Assembly (NCBI GenBank): GCA_963693055.1
Contig: OY843751.1
Coordinates: forward strand, 3,104,001 to 3,168,000
Direction of reading: 5' to 3'
Source of the DNA: a bacterium
GTDB taxonomy: Bacteria; Zhuqueibacterota; Zhuqueibacteria; Residuimicrobiales; Krinioviventaceae
DNA length: 64,000 nt
Shown: piece by piece, positions 22,724 to 40,014 of the stretch
Position numbering within the stretch: the stretch's first letter is position 1
Layout: every line of letters begins with the position of its first letter
Notes under the pieces: generated by a model
Databases searched by the model: none
Told to the model about the DNA's origin: nothing
The model's input: only the letters and a program-made list of their open reading frames with translations
Program-made: the position numbers and the translations under genes

Positions 22724-23377
22724 TTAATTCAATTCTACAAGTTGAGATTTTATTGCATATTTGACAAGGGCTGCAAAACTATCCAATTCTAATTTTTCCA
22801 TAATACGATAACGATGCGTTTCAACAGTTTTTATAGAAACATGAAGCATTTCGGCTACTTGTTTATTGCTATAACCTTCTGCAAGCAATTTAAGGACCTG
22901 TGCCTCTCTATTTGTAAGCGGACTCTCAACGGATGTGCCGGTTAAATTTGTATCAGACACCCAGGCACTGACAATTTGACGAGAAATTGGTGGGCTAAGA
23001 TACATCTCTCCACGTGTCACCTGTTGAATTGCTGTCATGAGTTCTTCAGATGCAGAATTTTTCAACAAATAGCCTGAAGCACCATTCTTTAGACTTTGTT
23101 TAATATATTCTTCATGGTCATACATACTTAGAACAAGAATTTTCGTTTCAGGTGAAACTGCTTTAATTTCCATTATTGCTTCTACCCCTCTTAATTTGGG
23201 CATAGAAATATCAATAATCATTATATCCGGATGATGTTCTTGAGCAAGCTCAATTGCTTCATATCCATTACCACCTTCTGCAATTACTGAAACATCGGGA
23301 AAGGTCATTAACAATTGTCGTAAACCTTCCCTGACCATTGTATGGTCATCTACTAAAATAATGCTATATTTTGCCAT
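22724..23377 (-). CDS. NarL/LuxR-family response regulator
   Basis: REC domain (LVDDH, DISMP) plus LuxR HTH (LTNREAQVL...SIKTVETHR). Confidence 0.95.
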   Translation of the reverse strand: MAKYSIILVDDHTMVREGLRQLLMTFPDVSVIAEGGNGYEAIELAQEHHPDIMIIDISMPKLRGVEAIMEIKAVSPETKILVLSMYDHEEYIKQSLKNGASGYLLKNSASEELMTAIQQVTRGEMYLSPPISRQIVSAWVSDTNLTGTSVESPLTNREAQVLKLLAEGYSNKQVAEMLHVSIKTVETHRYRIMEKLELDSFAALVKYAIKSQLVELN

Positions 23378-26300
23378 GATCCCCTTTGGTTATTGGAACA
23401 CTTGCTATAATTGTAGTACCATTACCAGGTGTCGAGTTTATATTAAACTCTCCTTCTAAAAAGTCAACACGTTCCTGCATACCGATAATACCAAAATGTA
23501 AGGAACCATCAATCTTTTTATGGTTTAAAACATCAAAACCAATGCCATCATCAATTATGGATAGAGTAATGTGATCATTTTTTTTATAAAGTTCAATAAA
23601 AACTTGATTTGCCTTTGCATATTTCAACACATTATTTAAAGCTTCCTGGATAATTCTATAAAATGAAATTTCTGCTTCTTTAGTTAAGTATTCTTTTACA
23701 GATTCTGTTTTCACTTTAACCTTAATCCCCCATTTCCCTGAAAATTCTTTGGCAAAATCCTTAATCGCGATCTCTAAACCAAAATCATCAAGCAATTGTG
23801 GACGTAGTTCACTACAAAGATTTCTGGCTTCAATTATTGCTTTGTTAAGTGTTGATTTTGATTCAGTTAGCATTTTTTTGGCTTTATCAACATTACTATC
23901 CAACGATGATGATACTGTACTGATCTCAAATTTTAGTGCAGTTAGCATTTGACCTAACGAGTCATGAATCTCTCTTGAAATTTTCTCTCGTTCTTCTTCC
24001 TGAAATTGTACAAGTCTGGCAGAAAATTTTCGGCTGGCATCAATAGCTTTTATCTGATCAGTAATGTCTATATTCATGCCAATATAACCAATTATAGAAT
24101 TATCCAAAGTAATAATAGGACTGAGTATAAGCTTATAAACTAAAACATCTTCATCGCTGCCTATAAAAAATTCATTTACAACCGAAGTATTGACCTTTTT
24201 AATTTCATTAATTGACAATTCTATTGCTTCAACAAATTCATATTGATGTAACACATCAGCTGGTCTTTTTTTAAGTATATTACCCCATTTATTAATAAAT
24301 TGGTTATTGGCGTTTTGAAAATGACCATGTACACTCATACTGAAAATTTCATAAGGTATATTTTTAAACAAAGTTCTATATCTCGCTTCACTATTTTTCA
24401 ATTCTCGTTCAGCATATTTTTGTTTCGAAATATCCTTAATAAATCCTTCTATCCCCTTTACAATACCATTTTCAACAACACGTCTGGCATTGAATCCTAT
24501 CCAATATGGACGTCCATATTCATTTACCAATTCGAGTTGATGCCATTTAATACTCTTGCCCCCCATTACCTGTCCATACATTTTTTTAATATAATCCATT
24601 TTAGGGTCGTGGTAATAATGCGCAAAATCTTTAGACTTTATCTGTTCCAAAGTTAACCCTAAAATTTTTTCACACGCTTCATTTAAATACTCTACATGCT
24701 CATCTTTGTTGATAAAGAAATAACCATCAATTGATCGCTCAATACTATTACGGAATCGAAGTTCTGATTCTTTAATCACCTGTTCAACCTGACGAAGTTT
24801 TGACACATCCATTATAATGCCACGTAAACCAATCACGGTATTATCTCTCAAAATTGGAGATGAACGCATTATTACCGGAAATTTGGTTTTATCTTTACGG
24901 AGAGCAGTATATTCATGCGTCATGGTACCCTGGTTGCTCAAGTTTTTAATACTTTTTCTGGCCTTTTCTCGATCAGACTCTATGAATAAATCAAACAGGT
25001 AAAAATCATTTTCAAATTCATTATGACTAAATCCGGTTACATGTTCTGCATGCTGATTCACAAAATTTAACTTGCCATCAATGTCTATTTCAAAAACAAT
25101 TTCCGGCAACAGCTCTGCTAGTTCTCGGAAACGTTCTTCACTGGATCTCAACTCTGCTTCAATTCGTTTTTGTTCATTTATATCACGGCCAACCCCAAGT
25201 ATTGCATTAATTTCTCCATTATTATCCATTATTGCAGTATCAATCCACGAGAACCAACGCCAACCATTTACTGTCATTGCCCGTTGTTCCACATAACATT
25301 TAAAGGGTGGACTGAACAATTTCTCCATTTCTTTGGCGGTATGTTCACGATCATCTTTATGCACAAGTGGGAAAAAGCTATTTCCTAAAAGCTCTTTTTC
25401 TGTTTTACCAAAAGTTTTGCAATATGAAGGACTAACAAATTGAAATTTGTTATGCAGATCAATTTTAACAACAAGATCAGCTTGATTTTCTACAAGAATT
25501 TGGTATATTTCTTTGCTTTCAACCAGTTCTGCTTCAATTTTTTTCCGTTCAGTAATATCCCTCGCTATGCCCAACACCGCATAATAATCACCATTTTCAT
25601 CTATTATGGGAACCAATTGTGTACCCAACCATACTTCCTTATTCGGCATATCAGATTGGTGCTCAAAATATAAAGTTTTACCGGTTTTCAACGCCAATTG
25701 TAAACGGCTTAATTGACGTTCAGATGCCTTAAAATCAAAATATTTTTTACGGGATTGCCCCATCATTTCTTCAGGATGGATTCCAAAATTTGATGCAGCA
25801 TAATCATTTACATATATGATGATATCATTTCTATCCACTATAAAGATATTGTCTTTTGCTGCCTCTGCAAGTGTCCTATAGCGTTTTTCACTTTCAACCA
25901 ATTTCCCCAAAATATCTTTTTCAAGAGTAACATCACGCATTAAACCGGTTATTGCAAATGGTTTATCATTCTGGTCGGTCAAAATGGTTGCATCCACTTC
26001 AACAGTAATTCTCACGCCATCTTTTCGTAAAAGATTATATTCAATATTGGTATATGAACCTTTAGTGTATAACTTGTCAAGATTTTTTTCAGCAAACTCG
26101 CGTTGTTCTGGTACTATAAAATCAACAAAGCGTTTATTCTCTTCAATTAATTCTTCCCTGCTTGAATATCCCAACAACTCGGCACATTTTTTATTAATTT
26201 GTATAACACGTCCTTCAAGGTCTGTTAATGCAATGCCCAACAATGAAGAATCAACCAGAGATCTATATTTTTTTTCATTATCAACAAGATCTTGCTTTAT

Positions 26301-27893
26301 TCTTTTTTTATCAGTTATGTCCTTGAAAAAAGCAAGCAAGCCTATAAATTCCTGGTTACGGTTCAACAATACAGATGTATTGGTTTCAATTCTCCTTTCA
26401 TCACCAGAAATATTCTTTACACTATACTCAGAATTTAATGGTTTACGAGTCTCTAATACGCTTGCAATATTTTTCTTTGCAAGTTCGAATTGATCAGGTA
26501 GTAAAAAATCAAAAATACTGAATTTGTCTGGTTGAGCATGATCCGCTGAATCATAACCTATCATATTAACAGCAAACTGATTTAAATGTTGAAATACTCC
26601 ATTATCATCAAAAATACCTATACCAATTGGAGCATTTTCAACTAATTGTTGAAAGTGTAGTTCCTGATCAAGGAGTGTATCATACATTTGGTTTCGAAAG
26701 AAATAAATTTTAATCATGTCTGCAAAAACCTGAAACAAATTTATTTCAAAAGCCATCCACTCCCTACTACGCTTAACTTCATCAAAGAAAATAATCCCCA
26801 AAAGCTTTTTGTCAATAACCAATGGAAGAACAATTTGAGATTGTACACCCATTTCCTGCAATACACTTTTGATATATTGAGCATTAGGTGGCAATTGATT
26901 TACATCAGAAATGACAATAACTCGTTCTGAGAATAATTTTTCTCTACCCCACTCAAAGGGTTTAAATTTTAGATCAAGCAATTGTTCACGAATTGACAAT
27001 TCGCCTTCTTTACACCATTCGAATAAATTGGAGACGTGATTTTTATCATTAAAGGTAACAACGGTTACTCTGTCAACATTTACTGTTTTTCCCATCTCGC
27101 CAATACAATACTCAAAGTCATCAGTATCAAATAATATTTGAGTAATATTTGCAATTGTTTGATCAATATTTATAAACCTGTCTATAATGCGACCATGAGA
27201 ATATTTATGGGAAATATTCTGTGCAACAGCTATCATGCCTACCGTGACATCTTTTTTAACAGGCATACATTTCGTTTCAAACCATTGCGTTTGATTATTA
27301 TCCGTTTCTATATCATATATAAATTTAAATTCTTTGGAATCATCTATCAGATTTTGAAAATCCTTATCAATATTACGACCAAGTGATTTTTTCAATAAAT
27401 CAATAAAATTTTTCTCATATAATTCATGGTGGGATGATTGCATTTGGAAACAAAAAGCATTATTTGCAAAAATAATCTTGCCCGCAAGATCTGTTATAAA
27501 GACCGCTTCTTCTAACTGGTCTGTTAAATTCAAAAATGCAGAACGTATATTCCCTAACTCAAATAATTCATGAGCATGTTTTGGAGAAAAATAACAGATA
27601 ATGAATTCAATCTCATCATTAATTATCTTATTATAATCAAGCTTGTAAACTTGATCAGTATTAACAAAATCAATGGACTGTGGAGAATTGGTTAAAAAAT
27701 CAAGTTTAATGTTAAATAACTCTTCAATACCAGAACCCAACCAGGGAACACTATTATCAATAATAATTGACTCAAAATTTAAATTTGCCCCTAAAATCAT
27801 CCCCTTTAAATCAGTAATACAAGCCGGAACAGGTGAATTTTCAAGTATTAACAAATAATTAGAAATAAATGGGTTCTTGTTTTTTGTTGTCAT
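23364..27893 (-). CDS. Cytoplasmic multi-PAS/GAF histidine kinase (HisKA_3, NarX/UhpB type)
   Basis: About nine PAS/PAC repeats and one GAF. EEEREKISREIHDSLGQ, QEALNNVLKYA, DDGIGFD, GIIGMQER. No TM segment. Confidence 0.93.
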   Translation of the reverse strand: MTTKNKNPFISNYLLILENSPVPACITDLKGMILGANLNFESIIIDNSVPWLGSGIEELFNIKLDFLTNSPQSIDFVNTDQVYKLDYNKIINDEIEFIICYFSPKHAHELFELGNIRSAFLNLTDQLEEAVFITDLAGKIIFANNAFCFQMQSSHHELYEKNFIDLLKKSLGRNIDKDFQNLIDDSKEFKFIYDIETDNNQTQWFETKCMPVKKDVTVGMIAVAQNISHKYSHGRIIDRFINIDQTIANITQILFDTDDFEYCIGEMGKTVNVDRVTVVTFNDKNHVSNLFEWCKEGELSIREQLLDLKFKPFEWGREKLFSERVIVISDVNQLPPNAQYIKSVLQEMGVQSQIVLPLVIDKKLLGIIFFDEVKRSREWMAFEINLFQVFADMIKIYFFRNQMYDTLLDQELHFQQLVENAPIGIGIFDDNGVFQHLNQFAVNMIGYDSADHAQPDKFSIFDFLLPDQFELAKKNIASVLETRKPLNSEYSVKNISGDERRIETNTSVLLNRNQEFIGLLAFFKDITDKKRIKQDLVDNEKKYRSLVDSSLLGIALTDLEGRVIQINKKCAELLGYSSREELIEENKRFVDFIVPEQREFAEKNLDKLYTKGSYTNIEYNLLRKDGVRITVEVDATILTDQNDKPFAITGLMRDVTLEKDILGKLVESEKRYRTLAEAAKDNIFIVDRNDIIIYVNDYAASNFGIHPEEMMGQSRKKYFDFKASERQLSRLQLALKTGKTLYFEHQSDMPNKEVWLGTQLVPIIDENGDYYAVLGIARDITERKKIEAELVESKEIYQILVENQADLVVKIDLHNKFQFVSPSYCKTFGKTEKELLGNSFFPLVHKDDREHTAKEMEKLFSPPFKCYVEQRAMTVNGWRWFSWIDTAIMDNNGEINAILGVGRDINEQKRIEAELRSSEERFRELAELLPEIVFEIDIDGKLNFVNQHAEHVTGFSHNEFENDFYLFDLFIESDREKARKSIKNLSNQGTMTHEYTALRKDKTKFPVIMRSSPILRDNTVIGLRGIIMDVSKLRQVEQVIKESELRFRNSIERSIDGYFFINKDEHVEYLNEACEKILGLTLEQIKSKDFAHYYHDPKMDYIKKMYGQVMGGKSIKWHQLELVNEYGRPYWIGFNARRVVENGIVKGIEGFIKDISKQKYAERELKNSEARYRTLFKNIPYEIFSMSVHGHFQNANNQFINKWGNILKKRPADVLHQYEFVEAIELSINEIKKVNTSVVNEFFIGSDEDVLVYKLILSPIITLDNSIIGYIGMNIDITDQIKAIDASRKFSARLVQFQEEEREKISREIHDSLGQMLTALKFEISTVSSSLDSNVDKAKKMLTESKSTLNKAIIEARNLCSELRPQLLDDFGLEIAIKDFAKEFSGKWGIKVKVKTESVKEYLTKEAEISFYRIIQEALNNVLKYAKANQVFIELYKKNDHITLSIIDDGIGFDVLNHKKIDGSLHFGIIGMQERVDFLEGEFNINSTPGNGTTIIASVPITKGDHGKI

Positions 27894-32299: not shown

Positions 32300-32812
32300 C
32301 TATCTATTTATTTCTTTATATTCTTTTTCCGTCTTGAACAATTTAAATCCCCTTGCAATATAGTTTTCAAGAGCAGCTGGATGATCAAGATTACAGGTAT
32401 GTAACCAAACACGTTTAGCGCCAGCATTCCAGGCACCTTGAATAGCCTGTGACAAGAAAATCCCCCCCAGTCCTTTACCTATAAACTGCTTTAACAATCC
32501 AAAATAAACAATTTCAACATCTCCCCCATTTTGAAATTCCAGCTCAAAATAGCCTGCAGGTGTATTTTTATAATACCCAATCCAGGTTTCCAGTCCCTTG
32601 CGTGTACCATATTGATGCCATTGTTCATTTGTCCATTCAAGCTTGTCTATCCAATCCCAATGGCTGCCAACAGCAATATAAAACATTTTATTTATTTCAG
32701 GACATTCAACATCAATTTTTTTAGACCAAAAATCAGGATCAATTTGAGCTGAAGGAGAATATTCAATTTTATCTTTCATTTCAAGATAATAAACAGTCAT
32801 TTCAACATTCAT
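32300..32812 (-). CDS. GNAT N-acetyltransferase
   Basis: PAGYFEL, YFGL...FIGKGLGG, RVWLHTC..DHPAALENY..RGF. Start at MNVEMT, 1 nt after the upstream stop. Confidence 0.9.
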   Translation of the reverse strand: MNVEMTVYYLEMKDKIEYSPSAQIDPDFWSKKIDVECPEINKMFYIAVGSHWDWIDKLEWTNEQWHQYGTRKGLETWIGYYKNTPAGYFELEFQNGGDVEIVYFGLLKQFIGKGLGGIFLSQAIQGAWNAGAKRVWLHTCNLDHPAALENYIARGFKLFKTEKEYKEINR

Positions 32813-32813
32813 A

Positions 32814-33620
32814 TTAATCTTCCCAGTTGAAATAAACAGCAGTACCACGATCCATCTGTTGAAAAGACAATTCAAAACGATTACCGGTTCTGGGGGTCCA
32901 CACATAAGACCAGTTGTCACAGATACCGGCCTGACAAATGGGTTGATTATCGTTCAAGATTTCAAGGCCAAAATAGAGTACATCCCCTTTATATTTTGAT
33001 ATATCGCAAACTGTATTAAAAACCGGTTTACCAAATTTCCATTCAATGACAGTAAAATCCAGTTCAATGTCCTCATCATCAAATAATCCTGACACAAGCG
33101 CACCATCAAGCTGTTCGAGCACATTCTTGTCAATAACATCATCTTTAAGAATCTTTGAATCAATACATCCCCCTCGCAAGATTGCATGATCAGGAAAGAC
33201 TTTTGAGGGTTTAAATTGCAACTTTTCCAGGCTCAAGATATCTTCATCATACAACATTTGTCCAAATAATTCTTGCACCAATACAGCAACCGGTTCAGGA
33301 GGAACAAAACTTTGAATATCAGAATGTATCACCGTAACATTGTCATATTTTTCAAGGCGTTTTTTAGCAATCTGATACATTTTTATATTTGTTTCTACAG
33401 CGTAAACTTGCTTTGCACCCAACTTTGACATATGCTCAGAAAGGATACCAAATCCACAGCCAGCCTCAACACAAACAGCATTTTCAATATATGCTTTATT
33501 TTGGGTCAACATTTCTAAATAAGCATTTGTACGATTTTCATCATCGTAAATACTTATAAATGCCAATAGATCATCAATTTTATTAAAACGATTTTCATCC
33601 AACTCGTTAATAATATCCAT
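32814..33620 (-). CDS. PRMT-like class I SAM-dependent methyltransferase
   Basis: DENRTNAY, EAGCGFGIL, GAKQVYAVE, double-E loop QELFGQMLYDE, FPDHAIL. Confidence 0.75.
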   Translation of the reverse strand: MDIINELDENRFNKIDDLLAFISIYDDENRTNAYLEMLTQNKAYIENAVCVEAGCGFGILSEHMSKLGAKQVYAVETNIKMYQIAKKRLEKYDNVTVIHSDIQSFVPPEPVAVLVQELFGQMLYDEDILSLEKLQFKPSKVFPDHAILRGGCIDSKILKDDVIDKNVLEQLDGALVSGLFDDEDIELDFTVIEWKFGKPVFNTVCDISKYKGDVLYFGLEILNDNQPICQAGICDNWSYVWTPRTGNRFELSFQQMDRGTAVYFNWED

Positions 33621-33626
33621 AAATTA

Positions 33627-36389
33627 CTAGTTACCTTTATTTTTTGATGGAGTAAAAGTTTTACGTATTTCTAACTTTTTCTTTTTGACCGTAAAATCCA
33701 CTTTTTTCATTTTCTGGTCCATTGTTAATACAAATTCATGAAAAGGTTCATCCACAAATGTTCTCAAAGGTAACCATTTTTTATCAATTTTTACACGATA
33801 AAATCCAGGTACCAGGTCAGTAAATTTATAATATCCATTCGCATTCGTGAAAATTTCACGTAATAGTCCCATTTCATTTTCCAACATCACTCGAATTTGA
33901 TTTAACGGATCATCTTTGCCATTAAATTTGTGATTGTTATCCAAATCCAGAAAAACATTTCCCTCAATCAAACAAACCGATGTTAGAGGAATTTGTAAAT
34001 GAATTACAGAACCACGATTTATTGAAATAATTTTTTCATACTCTCCTTGAATTTGTAAATAAGCAGGCAAAGTTGAAACATCAATTTTGAATTCGTAATC
34101 ACCGGCATCAACCGGACTAAATTCAAACTCTCCATTTGAACTGGATATAACAGTTTCATCATTAAAATGCAATAAAAGCTGAGACAATCCAGGTTCGTCA
34201 GGCTCTCGAATTCCATTCTGATTTTTATCAATATAAATTTCACCCTGTAGGGTACCTTTGGTTTTAATAAATGGCACAGGTACATTGAATCTTGGCAATA
34301 TGGTTGATGTCATGGTAGCTGACAAACGCCACTCTCTTGTCAGCATGTCGAGTTCAGAAATAGAGTTACTTAACTCAAATCTTAGATTATAATTATTATT
34401 AAATGGATGTAATTGTAATCCTGTTCTTACACTTCCATAAGTAAGTTTGACTTTACTAAAAATCCCTTCATCATCTAAATACCCTAAATAGCCGGTAGTT
34501 AGTGAAAAACCAAATAAAAATCCTTTTATATTTGTATCAAAATCCAAAATATATTGATCTGTATTTTCATATTTTTTTTGTAAAGTAGATCTATATTCAA
34601 ATTTAAATCTGGACAGGTAATAAAACATATTCAAACCGGCAGAGTATCTTTGGGTATTCGAATACACAAGGGAATTCAACCTGTCTTCAAGACTCCTAAA
34701 ACCTAAAAAAGGAATAAATACGCCAATTTTTCTTTGTAATGCTATTTCAAAAGATTTCAAATCCGTATATTGCAGTTGCTCGGTTTTAACATCTTTGAAA
34801 TTAAAACTTGAACTTGTATCAAAAAGGTAGGGTATACGGAGAAATGTTCGTAATTTTATATCGGTAACATTTTCCAGAGAATCCGGGTATATTGAATTTA
34901 AATCTTTATTATAACGATGAATACTATTCCAGATATAAAACCTGCTGACAGGAGCATATCGGGATGTCAGTAAAGCACCATATGTGCCCCGGTCAGTTCC
35001 CTGAAAAGTATCGTCAGCCCAATGTAATGCTCCCGTTAGATAATACTTTTTATGATTTGTTTTAAATTGTACTTGAGCGGCTCCGCTGGTTGGCTTGTTT
35101 TCAGCTCTGCTTAACCCTGTATAGATGCTGATATTATGAGCACTGTTTCCCAGGATTGACGATGAAGTTATAAATGAAGCAGTATCTGCTTTAAAATATT
35201 CAGTTGATAATGAAATTTCATTTTTTTTAAATTTCAAACTAGAATAAAAAAATCTATCATCTTTGTATAATTTTTTCCCCTTGAACAAAATCACAGAATA
35301 GTCGTCTAATTTTAAATTCAAAAATCCTCCCCTGCTCAACTGTCCAAAAGTAAACAGATTACTGTATTGAGTAATGCTCAAGTCTGCAAGTAATGGATTT
35401 AATAATAAACTGGAATCTCCTAACCGAATTGTGCTATATTTGTTTTGTAAACCTAATTTATATCTATGCATATAGAATTCGGGTGTATCATTTGTTCTGG
35501 TTAGATTAGATTTTAAGGTAGATTCAAATAGAATTTGAGAGCGTCCCATCTTGATATTACCCGTTTCCAAATATATTTCAGTGTCAGGATAATATCCTTT
35601 TTGAATTCGGTTAAAAGAAAATCCCATATTTACTGGTAAATAAATTCCCAAAGATCGGTCCAATGCTTTTGGCGCCTGAATTAATTTAACAGGAATAGTT
35701 TGTATGATCCGTTCAGTATTCCAATTTGTACCGGTTTCTATTCGAATAGTGTATTGGTTTTGCAATTGTACATCAATGGGCGTCTCAAAATAAAGTTTAA
35801 TATGTTTTTGGGTAAATGGTTTCAAGATAAAACTTTTCTCAAGTTGAGGATTAAAATTCCAATGAGGAGGTAAAACAACATTGCAATTAACCGTATCTAA
35901 TACGTTACCGGTATTTTTAATGATAAAGGAAAGCGAATCTTTTGCTGCAGGAAACACAGATTTCCTTTTTTCAAGAAAACCAACTTTGATATTTCGTTTT
36001 GGCTTGATTGCGATTTGGGTTGCAGATGAATCGGTAAATCCATCAAATGAGGTAAATAATTTCAAATAATACTTTATATTTGCTTTAGTAGAATTTGGTA
36101 TATTGAGTGTTACCCTAACTCTTGCTTTAGACAGTGAAGGAATACTGTCAGGTGTTGAAAAAGTTATCAAATTCCATTCATCAGGTTTGATTATTTGAAA
36201 TTCAGGATATATTGTTTTTTCGGATGTATTGGTTATTATATAAGAAAAAAGTGGAAATTCACCGGGATTCACAGAGCGAGATTCGGAATGTCTGACGATC
36301 AATGACCTTGATGGATCTACAGAAACCGCAAAAGCATTAACTCCCAATAATACTAAAATTAACACAATAAACTGGTGTGAAATCTTCAT
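33627..36389 (-). CDS. Putative usher-like outer membrane assembly protein (Ig domains, beta-rich core, two SdrD B-like domains)
   Basis: Signal peptide. Two COG1470/NEW3-like Ig repeats (ITNTS, IKNTGN). Aromatic-rich beta region. C-terminal GEIYIDKNQNGIRE and GNVFLDLDNN repeats. Confidence 0.55.
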   Translation of the reverse strand: MKISHQFIVLILVLLGVNAFAVSVDPSRSLIVRHSESRSVNPGEFPLFSYIITNTSEKTIYPEFQIIKPDEWNLITFSTPDSIPSLSKARVRVTLNIPNSTKANIKYYLKLFTSFDGFTDSSATQIAIKPKRNIKVGFLEKRKSVFPAAKDSLSFIIKNTGNVLDTVNCNVVLPPHWNFNPQLEKSFILKPFTQKHIKLYFETPIDVQLQNQYTIRIETGTNWNTERIIQTIPVKLIQAPKALDRSLGIYLPVNMGFSFNRIQKGYYPDTEIYLETGNIKMGRSQILFESTLKSNLTRTNDTPEFYMHRYKLGLQNKYSTIRLGDSSLLLNPLLADLSITQYSNLFTFGQLSRGGFLNLKLDDYSVILFKGKKLYKDDRFFYSSLKFKKNEISLSTEYFKADTASFITSSSILGNSAHNISIYTGLSRAENKPTSGAAQVQFKTNHKKYYLTGALHWADDTFQGTDRGTYGALLTSRYAPVSRFYIWNSIHRYNKDLNSIYPDSLENVTDIKLRTFLRIPYLFDTSSSFNFKDVKTEQLQYTDLKSFEIALQRKIGVFIPFLGFRSLEDRLNSLVYSNTQRYSAGLNMFYYLSRFKFEYRSTLQKKYENTDQYILDFDTNIKGFLFGFSLTTGYLGYLDDEGIFSKVKLTYGSVRTGLQLHPFNNNYNLRFELSNSISELDMLTREWRLSATMTSTILPRFNVPVPFIKTKGTLQGEIYIDKNQNGIREPDEPGLSQLLLHFNDETVISSSNGEFEFSPVDAGDYEFKIDVSTLPAYLQIQGEYEKIISINRGSVIHLQIPLTSVCLIEGNVFLDLDNNHKFNGKDDPLNQIRVMLENEMGLLREIFTNANGYYKFTDLVPGFYRVKIDKKWLPLRTFVDEPFHEFVLTMDQKMKKVDFTVKKKKLEIRKTFTPSKNKGN

Positions 36390-36406
36390 AAAAATCAGCT
36401 CAGAAT

Positions 36407-36853
36407 TTACTGTTTTCGACTTTTTACTTCAATAACCAGATTCGTGCTGTATACAGAAGGTTTTGTATTCCAATCTACTAAAATTCGGAAATCAATTTTC
36501 ACTTTTTCATTTCCTATACCAGATTTTACTAAATTCTTTTGCAATTCAACAGCATGATAATCCTGACTTTGTGATAATTTCCATAACAAATCCTGATGTG
36601 GTTTTTCCAGTTCGACAGGATAAAACCAAGGTTGCTCAGTATATATATATAATTCCCAATAGGTTTCTTTTAAACTATTAATATTTACCAGAAAATCATC
36701 AACATTGGCATGTGTTTCAACATACCCCCTATCCAAATCAACAATTGTAGGAACAGGGATTTGTAAGGTTAAAAGGTTACATTGGATAATACCATCGAAC
36801 CCCCAAAGTACCAAAGGATAAAATAAAAGATAAATTATAAAAATCTTTTTCAT
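36407..36853 (-). CDS. Putative minor pilin-like exported protein
   Basis: Signal peptide. DLDRGYVE...WELYI...IDFRILVDWNTKPSVYSTNLVIEV. Paralogous to the next ORF. Confidence 0.5.
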   Translation of the reverse strand: MKKIFIIYLLFYPLVLWGFDGIIQCNLLTLQIPVPTIVDLDRGYVETHANVDDFLVNINSLKETYWELYIYTEQPWFYPVELEKPHQDLLWKLSQSQDYHAVELQKNLVKSGIGNEKVKIDFRILVDWNTKPSVYSTNLVIEVKSRKQ

Positions 36854-36861
36854 ATACAAAG

Positions 36862-37341
36862 CTAATTTAAAGGTTCAAGTCTTATTACAGGATCAAAAAT
36901 CCAATTACCGGCAGGTGTTGAGTTGACATCGATTTTCATTCGATAATCTAACATTATCTCCATATCATGCACACCTGCTTTTCCTGTATAGATAACCTGG
37001 GGTACCTGAGACATGCTGAAAAAATTATGATTGTTTGCACAAACACTAAAATCGGAAATGGGTTTAAAAATACCCTGGGTAGTGTATAGATTGGAACGTG
37101 TAGAATAGATGACCAATTGCCACTCAACATTACTGGAAATACGTATTGTTACAGCATCGGTGATCTCGTAATACCCTCTTTCATAATCAGAGAATGTCAT
37201 GTTAGGGAAACTTTTGGTATGTATTATTTGAAAATTTTGAAGCGGCGGAACATTAAAATATAGTGTAATATCTTCTGATTTTTGAGAGAATATTGAAGAG
37301 GTTAATAGCAAAAATAAAAAAGTTTTAAATCTACGGGACAT
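36862..37341 (-). CDS. Putative minor pilin-like exported protein
   Basis: Signal peptide from MSRRFK. DYERGYYE...SNVEWQLVI...LDYRMKIDVNSTPAGNW. Confidence 0.5.
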   Translation of the reverse strand: MSRRFKTFLFLLLTSSIFSQKSEDITLYFNVPPLQNFQIIHTKSFPNMTFSDYERGYYEITDAVTIRISSNVEWQLVIYSTRSNLYTTQGIFKPISDFSVCANNHNFFSMSQVPQVIYTGKAGVHDMEIMLDYRMKIDVNSTPAGNWIFDPVIRLEPLN

Positions 37342-38131
37342 TAAAAAACGCCTCACCAGCAACAAGAAAATCACCTAAAAAATCTACTACAACAAGAGCT
37401 GAATAATCGCCTTTATCAAGATCAATAATATTATCAAATTTAATAGTTTTGTATTTATTTGGCAAACAATTAAAATTTTTATTTTCAATTGTTTTTACGG
37501 TTTCGCCCAACTCATTTCGAATATCCACATAACTATTACATTTTAAACGAGTATTGCCAATATTTTTAAACACAGATTTAACTTTTAATGAATCATTCAT
37601 CGAATTATATTCAGCGGTAACATTTGCAATTTCTCCATTGTTTTCTGAATTTTGGTCAATAGTTACATAAAACCAAATGTATGACCGAATATTCATATAT
37701 ATGGTATAAGAAGACTGCTCATTTTGGGTTTGAAAACCAATCTGTGGTTCTTCATCTGGTTCAACAACAATAACTCCATAATATGTACCAGACAAATTAG
37801 AATCAGGTATTGCCAGAGTAAATCGAACATTCTGAGATTGCATAGGGGTAACAGAAAAATTTTCTGGACTTAAAAAAATCCATTCCATGCAGCTTCTCTC
37901 AGTTTCACCAACATCGGTTATTTCTATCTGATCATCCTCTACAACCAAATCACTCAGAAAAACACGATATTTCATTGTAGAATCTGCCTGATTAAGCAAA
38001 GAAAATGATTGATTTATTGAATCACCAGGTGAAACATGAAAATCAAACGACATGGGAGCTATTTGCCAACTTTCTTGCGCAAAACAAACACTTGTGGTAA
38101 AAAATAATAAAAGAATAATTACTTTACGCAT
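37331..38131 (-). CDS. Putative periplasmic pilus chaperone (PapD/EcpB/DUF916-like, two Ig domains)
   Basis: Signal peptide. IAP..F...PG......N, W..LSP..F.V.P.....VRFTL.IP....GTYYGVIVVE, and KNIGN in the second domain. Confidence 0.6.
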   Translation of the reverse strand: MRKVIILLLFFTTSVCFAQESWQIAPMSFDFHVSPGDSINQSFSLLNQADSTMKYRVFLSDLVVEDDQIEITDVGETERSCMEWIFLSPENFSVTPMQSQNVRFTLAIPDSNLSGTYYGVIVVEPDEEPQIGFQTQNEQSSYTIYMNIRSYIWFYVTIDQNSENNGEIANVTAEYNSMNDSLKVKSVFKNIGNTRLKCNSYVDIRNELGETVKTIENKNFNCLPNKYKTIKFDNIIDLDKGDYSALVVVDFLGDFLVAGEAFFNVP

Positions 38132-38166
38132 TTTTAAAATCGCCTAAATAATATTGAATATATATG

Positions 38167-38196
38167 AAAAAGCAGTTCCGCAAGCGGAACTGCTTT
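38167..38196 (-). terminator. Intra-cluster terminator/stabilising hairpin after the major pilin candidate
   Basis: Minus strand AAAGCAGTTCCGC-tt-GCGGAACTGCTTTTT. Confidence 0.8.
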
Positions 38197-38222
38197 AAAT
38201 TTAAAATTGTAAAATATAAAAA

Positions 38223-38819
38223 TTAAGGAGCTTCGGTTGCTTCCCATACATTTAATGTAACCGTAACAGAGTAAGCACCTGCTACATCAACACCAGCTTC
38301 TAAATCAAATTGAATATCGCCGGCAAAATCATTTACCCATACACCCTGAGCATCACTTGAAGTTACACAAGCCTGACCACTTGATCCTAATTCAGTCATA
38401 GTCCCCATAGAATTAGACAAATCACCAAATGTAGTACCAGGATCAATTTGAAGTCTTAAACCAGATGCATTAGGACCATAATTGTCAGGATGTTTGTTTC
38501 CTGTATTTGGATAAGCAGCGGGTACTGTCCAAGCTGAACATAGTGCTTGTACTTCAGTATCATAGTTTGTAGTCAAATTACTAACAGTAAAATAATCAGC
38601 AATTGTATAATTAGCAGGTGAGCCAGGTGCACCAAAATCTCCCAGAGTAATGCTATTCCACTCGGCTACCCATGCAATGGGTGTCATAAATGAAACTGTA
38701 AAAGTTGTTAATCTTCCAATTGTTCCAGAACCGCCACCTGAAGATCCAGTACCTTCTTGACCAAATGACAATACTGCCATAGTTAAAATTAATAATAGAA
38801 CAAGTAGTGTTTTTTTCAT
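38223..38819 (-). CDS. Putative major pilin / fibre subunit
   Basis: Signal peptide, Gly/Ser N-terminal extension, Thr/Gly/Ser-rich beta protein, two Cys, C-terminal AGAYSVTVTLNV. Strong RBS AAGGAG. Confidence 0.55.
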   Translation of the reverse strand: MKKTLLVLLLILTMAVLSFGQEGTGSSGGGSGTIGRLTTFTVSFMTPIAWVAEWNSITLGDFGAPGSPANYTIADYFTVSNLTTNYDTEVQALCSAWTVPAAYPNTGNKHPDNYGPNASGLRLQIDPGTTFGDLSNSMGTMTELGSSGQACVTSSDAQGVWVNDFAGDIQFDLEAGVDVAGAYSVTVTLNVWEATEAP

Positions 38820-38904
38820 TAGAAAACTCCTTTTAAAAATGATTAGTTTGATTATTTACTTTTCACTCTACGTTTACATCACCTCCCAATCATCATCATT
38901 CAAA

Positions 38905-40014
38905 TTATTCAACTTTGGTCATTTTTTTAATCAAACTGGTACCATTTGCTTCAAGCTTGTAAAAATAGACACCGGAACTGATGCTGTTGGCATTATAATC
39001 AAGACCGTTCCAGTCAATACTATAATAACCTGCAGATTGGTTGGCATCTACCAAGGTAGCAATTTTCTTACCCAAAATATTAAATACTTGCAGGGATACA
39101 TGACTATCTATAGCCAATTCGTATCTTATTTTTGTACCTGGATTAAAGGGATTGGGGTAATTTTGCTGCAATACCATAGATGTAGGTGCTTTTGTGGTAA
39201 TCTGGGTACTGGCAATAACATTTGTTTCACCCTTTATTGTAACTTCCTGTACCTGATACCAATACGTTTTATCAATATCAATAAAAGTGTCAGTAAAAGA
39301 ATATTCTGCAGCAACAGTAGCGCTGCCTTTTGCAGGTAACAATGCAGATGTAATACATTGGTAATCACCATCAACAGCATCACTGCGGTAAATGTGGTAA
39401 CCCTGGGTTTCAATTTCAGATTCGGTACGCCAGTTGAGATCAACTTTGTCTTTATTATAATCTGCGGAAAAACTGGCCAATTGAACAGGTAAAGGAAAAT
39501 CTGTAAGAGAATTCACTGTTACAGTACCAGCGATATCAGTAACAAAATCACTACTCTCTATAACTTGTAATGGAGTTACTGCCTCTTTCGTAATCGTGCC
39601 CGTATTATCAGTTGGATTATAATTTATTGTTATCCTTGCAATCAATGTTGTTGCTCCACCAGAACCATCAATGGTAAGATATGGACTAGAGAATTTATCA
39701 TATGAAATCGATAATGTTTTTTCAGTACCACCAGAGGAAGTTAACGCTTGACTATAACCAGCAGCAACTGAAAAATATCTTGAAGAACCAACCGCACTAA
39801 TATATTGACTGGTTAGCGCTGCATTCATATGTAGTTTCAAATAAAATGCGGCAATCTCAGGTGTTTCTGCATTATCATCGGTAGTTGCATTGACATCAAA
39901 CACCAATTGACCTGAAGTATTACTGACAAAATCTACAGTAACATCAACAGCAGCCTGTAATGCGGAAAAACTAACAACCAGAATAACGAGAATTAATGGT
40001 AACAACCTTTTCAT
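38905..40014 (-). CDS. Secreted Ig/cohesin-like protein with FlgD/T9SS-type C-terminal sorting domain
   Basis: Signal peptide, about 150-aa beta domain, PLPVQLASF plus Fn3-like module, then LQQNYPNPFNP...SSGVYFYKL...KKMT. Confidence 0.8.
   Translation of the reverse strand: MKRLLPLILVILVVSFSALQAAVDVTVDFVSNTSGQLVFDVNATTDDNAETPEIAAFYLKLHMNAALTSQYISAVGSSRYFSVAAGYSQALTSSGGTEKTLSISYDKFSSPYLTIDGSGGATTLIARITINYNPTDNTGTITKEAVTPLQVIESSDFVTDIAGTVTVNSLTDFPLPVQLASFSADYNKDKVDLNWRTESEIETQGYHIYRSDAVDGDYQCITSALLPAKGSATVAAEYSFTDTFIDIDKTYWYQVQEVTIKGETNVIASTQITTKAPTSMVLQQNYPNPFNPGTKIRYELAIDSHVSLQVFNILGKKIATLVDANQSAGYYSIDWNGLDYNANSISSGVYFYKLEANGTSLIKKMTKVE

Follow-up and report, generated by a model that had tools for sequence, protein, structure and literature searches.

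Within the 64,000-nucleotide stretch of bacterial DNA analysed here (the window), the gene at positions 32814 to 33620 of the minus strand encodes a 268-residue protein, P0001, that almost certainly has the fold found in protein arginine methyltransferases (PRMTs), as judged from its predicted structure. The reading favoured on balance, by analogy with characterised enzymes, is that P0001 is a single-copy, stand-alone homodimer of PRMT fold that carries out the SAM-dependent monomethylation of an arginine side chain in a cellular protein. The open reading frame starts with ATG, and its orthologue in a genome of the same genus (G043) is identical at 242 of the 268 residues; the low dN (0.046) compared to the dS (0.85) indicates that this is a real gene on which purifying selection acts. 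The protein is acidic, with a pI of 4.4 (median of the family, 4.8), and a promoter scan returned a signal no better than chance.

The original prediction placed the protein among the PRMTs on the basis of a series of short motifs, and all of them are present in the 268-residue frame (residues 27–34, 51–60, 68–76, 113–126, 142–148, and 235–240). Their collinearity with PRMTs is above chance: in a phmmer search against PDB sequences, 55 of the best 60 of 95 matches are PRMTs, headed by CARM1 (E 1.7e-11), and RsmA reaches only 3e-6, while a 120-member family profile matches PRMT3 with an E of 2e-17 and RsmA with 2e-7. These PDB sequence matches span the SAM-binding half only, approximately residues 25 to 165. 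This part of the protein consists of a helix preceding the Rossmann fold (residues 9–26; 33543..33596, on the minus strand like all features of the gene given below), which carries I24 at the position of CARM1 M163 as well as Y25, and the SAM-binding Rossmann domain (residues 27–143; 33192..33542), in which the alignments and the model locate motifs I, post-I, II, and III, with D27, R30, motif I (51–60), and the post-I residue E76. A weak Pfam PRMT5 match covers residues 36–125 only, and a 50-residue query built on the double-E loop retrieved no PRMT.

The best Pfam and NCBIfam matches of P0001 are rRNA methyltransferases (RrnaAD, 3e-9; Erm, 3e-9), and one relative, P0063, was automatically named RsmA, both of which would fit an RsmA/Erm- or PrmA-like methyltransferase whose likeness to PRMTs is superficial. 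However, these matches are limited to residues 41–111; the RsmA and Erm models of NCBIfam score 28–36 bits against cut-offs of 171–212 and the PrmA model 18.3 against 183 bits, and no full-length match lies above a curated cut-off; at the level of sequence, they reflect just the shared SAM-binding strands. The window genome (G000), in addition, encodes a separate PrmA (G000:C1:5666204-5667022). Structural comparison, in which PrmA reaches a Z of 12.0 over 136 residues and PRMTs a Z of 22 over 250, largely refutes this explanation and leaves it with next to no probability.

The AlphaFold2 model of P0001 has a pLDDT of 94.6. When it was compared with 48,161 chains, ranks 1 to 15 were all taken by PRMTs (Z 22.4–14.8, 235–261 of 268 residues aligned, rmsd 2.8–4.2), to which P0001 is 13–20% identical in the structural alignments, and the best non-PRMT chain followed with a Z of 12.4 over 118 residues. 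In Foldseek, all among the matches listed are PRMTs, the first being trypanosome PRMT7 (E 9e-17). The structural search had been set as a test of the PRMT assignment against PrmA, RsmA, and small-molecule methyltransferases, and the best matches were PRMTs and none of these. PRMT homology is therefore borne out by the structural ranks, with the sequence match confined to the SAM-binding half.

The C-terminal half, a reduced PRMT-type beta-barrel in the predicted model (residues 144–268; 32817..33191), has no PDB sequence match, no consistent Pfam family, and no match to PRMT_C, so its identity depends on the predicted fold. Folded alone, residues 140–268 give a model with a pLDDT of 92.2, which again places PRMTs at ranks 1 to 15 (Z 9.0–4.5, rmsd 3.1–4.2, 115–127 residues aligned) and the next chain at a Z of 3.5; Foldseek yields the same ordering, with no E under 0.001. 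The Z values of the barrel are modest singly, and it is the unbroken ranking of PRMTs that counts as evidence. The barrel is shortened, as had been proposed, since 129 residues cover the equivalent of approximately 155–190 residues of PRMT chains.

The double-E loop (residues 117–126; 33243..33272) was recognised correctly as E117-x8-E126, and it aligns onto the glutamate pair of CARM1 and PRMT3. PMC4655611 describes this pair as the only catalytic residues conserved across all PRMTs. Among 174 pooled full-length family members, on which the residue counts given here are based, R30, E76, G120, and D125 are each found in 174/174 and E126 in 173/174, and position 117 is acidic in all of them (Glu in 153, Asp in 21). 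The suggestion that the DNWSYV motif is equivalent to the THW loop also agrees with the alignments: N236-W237 (32910..32915; Asn in 174/174 and Trp in 173/174) lines up with the His-Trp of PRMT8 in two profile-alignment steps that pass via group A2 of bacterial homologues, in a region where the alignment is weak. The active-site positions rank as the best conserved of the family, and by analogy with PRMTs, P0001 very probably performs guanidino N-methylation.

The resemblance to PRMT1 that was originally asserted holds for the core motifs and fails at the positions that determine the product, where the type I residues are missing. According to PMC4655611, with which PMC8226133 and PMC12153873 agree on these residue rules, the YFxxY/Met/His set is specific to type I enzymes and the Phe/Ser set to PRMT5, and Q329 of the trypanosome PRMT7 blocks symmetric dimethylation. 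Positions 11, 12, 15, and 24 of P0001 align with the YFxxY motif plus the Met that follows it. Tyr is found at position 11 in 0/174 members and at position 15 in 5/174, position 24 is Met in 3/174 and Ile in 168/174, and the THW His occurs in 0/174, so the type I set (YFxxY, CARM1 M163, H415) is absent. The type II (PRMT5) set is also absent, with Ile at the F327 position, Asn at the S578 position, and no N-terminal TIM barrel. With regard to the type III (PRMT7) pattern, the residues of P0001 are compatible with a narrow pocket in which an amide occupies the THW position. As the YFxxY tyrosines are missing and an amide stands at the THW position, monomethylarginine would be slightly favoured as the product if the enzyme is active on arginine, an assignment to be held loosely because Asn is shorter than Gln.

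A PRMT scaffold could also have been repurposed for another acceptor, such as lysine, histidine, an N-terminus, or another amine. The family forms a long separate branch, its THW His is replaced, its first acid is Asp in 21/174 members, and it has an extra invariant acid, Asp125, all of which would suit a different acceptor; nevertheless, the spacing of the acid pair is kept and the amide at the THW position is retained, as in PRMT7, and we regard such a change of acceptor as improbable. Two cysteines five residues apart (residues 229–234; 32919..32934) lie beside the THW-equivalent loop in 161/174 and 165/174 members. Most members also have a His at 223. The site, which is lost in some distant members, may possibly be a disulfide or bind a metal.

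The dimerisation arm was described as apparently absent, which needs to be corrected. The segment from the first barrel strand to the post-arm strand retains about 17 residues, among them a single short helix, compared to 28 in PRMT8, and the position of the aromatic arm tip of PRMTs is a gap in P0001. The remaining arm (residues 156–172; 33105..33155; short helix, 165–169) is predicted to pack on the partner helix 15–25. Prediction of the homodimer gave a score of 0.69, with the best of three controls at 0.00, and at least 93% of contacts are shared between runs, with a pLDDT of at least 88; of the structures used to calibrate this complex test, 20 of 30 solved pairs reach the mark, as does 1 of 23 solved monomers, figures that apply only roughly to the alignment used here. 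In the predicted dimer, residues 2–6, which belong to a conserved N-terminal segment (residues 1–7; 33600..33620), sit as a strand between 174–177 and 261–264 of the partner and contact its residues 121–125, touching residues 121, 122, and 125 of the double-E loop, and residues 167–179 pack against the partner helix 15–25.

P0001 is thus predicted to form a homodimer, partly via an interface unlike the head-to-tail PRMT dimer. Conservation is higher at the 35 interface positions than at the remaining 233 (0.75 vs. 0.59, p 0.001, with no correction for burial), and in the N-terminal segment N5 is kept in 172/174 members and an acid (D/E) at position 2 in 164/174. The predicted insertion of the N-terminus into the partner would explain why the N-terminus lies at the same alignment column in 112/120 members and why the chain ends 1–2 residues past W266 in 149/174, a place where group A2 has one further strand. 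From the model, the swapped segment may substitute for the last strand of the barrel, which is a weak inference; the profile alignment supports a missing last strand, whereas one structural alignment, that with trypanosome PRMT6 (4lwo), continues up to the final residue of that chain. Since part of the interface resembles the usual arm-on-helix contact, memory of solved PRMT dimers may have contributed to the dimer score.

In the mechanism that we propose from PRMT chemistry as described in PMC4655611, SAM would be bound at D27, R30, motif I, and E76, the guanidinium would be held by E117 and E126 and flanked by I24 and N236, and a single methyl group would be transferred from SAM to the arginine side chain, as in the trypanosome PRMT7. 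The dimer would be held by residues 2–6 placed between the partner strands 174–177 and 261–264 and by the stub arm lying on the partner N-terminal helix. A broader version, possible although it is more doubtful than this mechanism, regards P0001 as a housekeeping PRMT acting on the bacterium's own proteins and as a PRMT core smaller than any described so far, which would be an obligate dimer whose N-termini complete the partner barrels, taking the place of the long arm as well as of the last strand. If true, bacteria would methylate their own proteins by PRMT-type chemistry, and PRMT dimers could be built in a second manner.

The substrate is probably a protein. Twelve acidic positions are kept in at least 85% of the 174 members, and only three basic ones (R30, R88, R244); when just the 30 most diverse members are considered, no basic residue other than R30 is kept at 90%. 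An acidic, stand-alone, single-copy protein with no conserved basic residue for a carboxylate favours a basic protein over free arginine, and we moderately prefer a basic peptide as the substrate. Several protein classes were considered and rejected. Histones are unlikely targets, as there is no histone-fold gene in the window genome, and no strong RG/RGG-repeat protein was found among its 5,691 ORFs. Proteins with an RRM, which are present in 121/167 genomes of the phylum, were discarded as a common substrate given that none was found in family f10, where all five genomes carry the gene.

The substrate of SznE is free arginine, and the enzyme is PRMT-like. In a similar way, P0001 might methylate a small guanidino molecule such as free arginine or agmatine, with the N-terminus of the partner closing the groove. 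This alternative, which is unlikely although it deserves consideration, draws on SznE being a biosynthetic-cluster arginine methyltransferase (PMC12637814), on the contacts predicted between the swapped segment and the double-E loop, and on the observation that no class of protein substrate co-varies with the gene. Against it, metabolic neighbours are not conserved, the diverse set has no conserved basic residue besides R30 for carboxylate binding, and no genes of the amidinotransferase/deiminase family (PF02274) or of PF14518 were found in the complete window genome, in which the controls were detected.

Among individual proteins, the best defined candidate for methylation by P0001 is the loop-tip arginine of elongation factor P (EF-P), which reads MGRG in the window genome and has no known modifier. 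The EF-P of this genome is Arg-tipped and no EpmA lies above cut-off there; arginine EF-Ps of unknown modification have been described (PMC11388002), and in two genomes (G030 and G031) a distance of 2.6 kb separates efp from the P0001 orthologue. Among the 145 genomes in which the tips were read, including 37 of the 42 published carriers, Arg tips occur in 21/37 carriers and 32/108 non-carriers (Fisher p 0.005, with kin not independent). However, 16 of the 37 carriers have no Arg tip, namely seven with PGKG (EpmA is present in five of these, G030 and G031 among them) and nine with PGNWR, and in the order to which the window genome belongs the tip is Arg in 15/15 carriers and in 20/21 non-carriers, which gives no discrimination. 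An Arg-tipped EF-P thus fails as a common substrate, considering the five carriers with a Lys-tipped EF-P and EpmA, and even as the target in the window genome it is highly improbable.

EF-P tips vary markedly throughout the phylum and include MGRG/MARG, SRGR/SRGK, PGNWR/PGNLR, and PGKG (G000:C1:3072453-3073010, which is L113, and L114–L261), and four genomes have two EF-P types. EpmA lies above cut-off in only 36/167 genomes and is lacking in many PGKG genomes and in all Arg-tip genomes read.

The surroundings of the gene are variable. Across 29 loci from the genome collection and 30 from the class, which include duplicates, no neighbours recur beyond genus or family level, and no biosynthetic cluster recurs around these 59. 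In the window genome, a GNAT acetyltransferase gene (32300..32812, minus strand) starts one base past the stop codon of P0001 and is probably co-transcribed with it; as a conserved partner it was rejected, being found with this query in 24/167 genomes and not in most carriers. Upstream of P0001 lies a six-gene cluster (33627–40014, minus strand) that is not at this place in G043, where a gene of the TraB family (378/392 identical) is located 65 bases upstream of the orthologue. The cluster has a GC content of 33%, compared to 39% for the genome, and resembles a chaperone-usher-like surface system. It encodes a 920-residue SdrD-B/carboxypeptidase-regulatory protein, a 266-residue chaperone-like protein, a protein with a FlgD/T9SS tail, and three further proteins of 150–198 residues with no Pfam match, and all six are predicted to be secreted. 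The window also contains, as read from its translation, an ORF of 1509 residues resembling a multi-PAS/GAF sensor histidine kinase (23364–27893, minus strand).

Within the phylum, the gene is found as a single copy in 43 of 167 genomes, a count that takes in one unpublished genome (G120), and in 29 of the 105 high-quality ones. The family search recovered 227 proteins at an E of 0.001 among 958 candidates, and a full HMMER scan found 29 representatives at 1e-30, followed by a drop to SAM-domain-only matches. The closest named relatives come from records titled KSB1, Calditrichota, Bacteroidota, Ignavibacteria, and WOR-3, and relatives are labelled as hypothetical, as generic methyltransferases, or as RsmA, with only one automatically named PRMT1. 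No fusions were found among proteins of 560–2000 residues, which is weak evidence. In two loci (L021:6001-6819 and L029:5833-6447) the gene lies in two frames, due to a frameshift or an assembly error.

A quick tree with 27 rows from the family and 14 distant ones, restricted to bacterial sequences and leaving out eukaryotic PRMTs and the distant matches P0152–P0269, places the family on its own branch (SH-aLRT 100, with a long-branch warning). The distance to eukaryotic PRMTs is much smaller for other bacterial homologues, and these sequence relationships indicate that the family is a derived one among bacterial PRMT homologues and not a recent import. To our knowledge, PRMT chemistry has been studied almost solely in eukaryotes. 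The original prediction referred to PRMTs as regarded as largely eukaryotic, which overstated the surprise: bacterial PRMT homologues are already in print (Legionella; PMC10117894), and there are bacterial groups with a far greater likeness to the eukaryotic enzymes than this family has. The family itself has no name, and literature searches that had most subscription journals outside their coverage found no description of it.

Two pattern sets applied to viral contigs found no family member, and phage records and PHROGs gave weak SAM-domain matches only. Look-alikes of 250–313 residues identified with a language model (ESM Atlas) are present in tailed phages, Methanobacteriota, and CPR bacteria. 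The phage models BFVD A0A6J5L7A5 and D6PIP9 resemble P0001, one phage model matches at an E of 5e-14, and a phage protein of 313 residues matches the full P0001 model with a TM of 0.63. Phage-borne PRMT-fold enzymes may merit separate study.

As a soluble, stand-alone protein of 268 residues with a natural Ile/Asn pair in its active site, P0001 would allow an easy test of whether a PRMT fold methylates bacterial proteins, and it is also suited to testing the rules of PRMT product type and dimerisation. The analysis, in addition, corrects the database labels of its relatives. Its value is limited by the lacking substrate assignment, the patchy distribution of the gene, and the existence of many other bacterial PRMT-fold groups.

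Of the known enzymes, PRMT7 of Trypanosoma brucei (type III; 4m38, 5eku) is among the closest to P0001. It is the top Foldseek match and has a Z of 21.9 in the structural ranking, and both have a single PRMT core, a double-E loop, and a homodimeric arrangement, predicted in the case of P0001, as well as an amide at the THW position, Q329 in PRMT7 and, at the position aligned with it, Asn in P0001. They differ in that identity is only about 20%, P0001 has Ile at the M75 position and a barrel approximately 45 residues shorter, and a short arm with a predicted swapped N-terminal strand stands in place of the full arm of PRMT7. Type I PRMTs (CARM1/PRMT4, PRMT3, PRMT1, PRMT6, PRMT2, PRMT8) are the best sequence matches, over the SAM-binding half, and are tied with PRMT7 in structure (Z 21–22.4); the P0001 family, however, has neither their YFxxY tyrosines, Met, and THW His nor their aromatic arm tip.

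Among bacterial proteins, group A2 (loci L030–L079) shares the PRMT fold and matches the P0001 family with a profile probability of 99.3. Unlike this family, which falls in a separate clade, A2 has a full arm, many of its members pass the Pfam PRMT_C cut-off, and it matches PRMT8 at an E of 6e-51, with a consensus in which Asp and His take the double-E positions and Tyr-Gly replaces the THW residues. A2 is widespread in bacteria, and many of its members are extended at the C-terminus by about 80 residues. In PMC10117894, an arginine methyltransferase effector from mycobacteria is described, along with two predicted PRMTs of Legionella pneumophila, of unknown activity; the latter are, like P0001, bacterial and of PRMT fold, a likeness taken from the description only. 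SznE, also compared by its description only, is a bacterial SAM-dependent arginine N-methyltransferase encoded in the streptozotocin biosynthetic cluster (PMC12637814), whereas P0001 stands alone.
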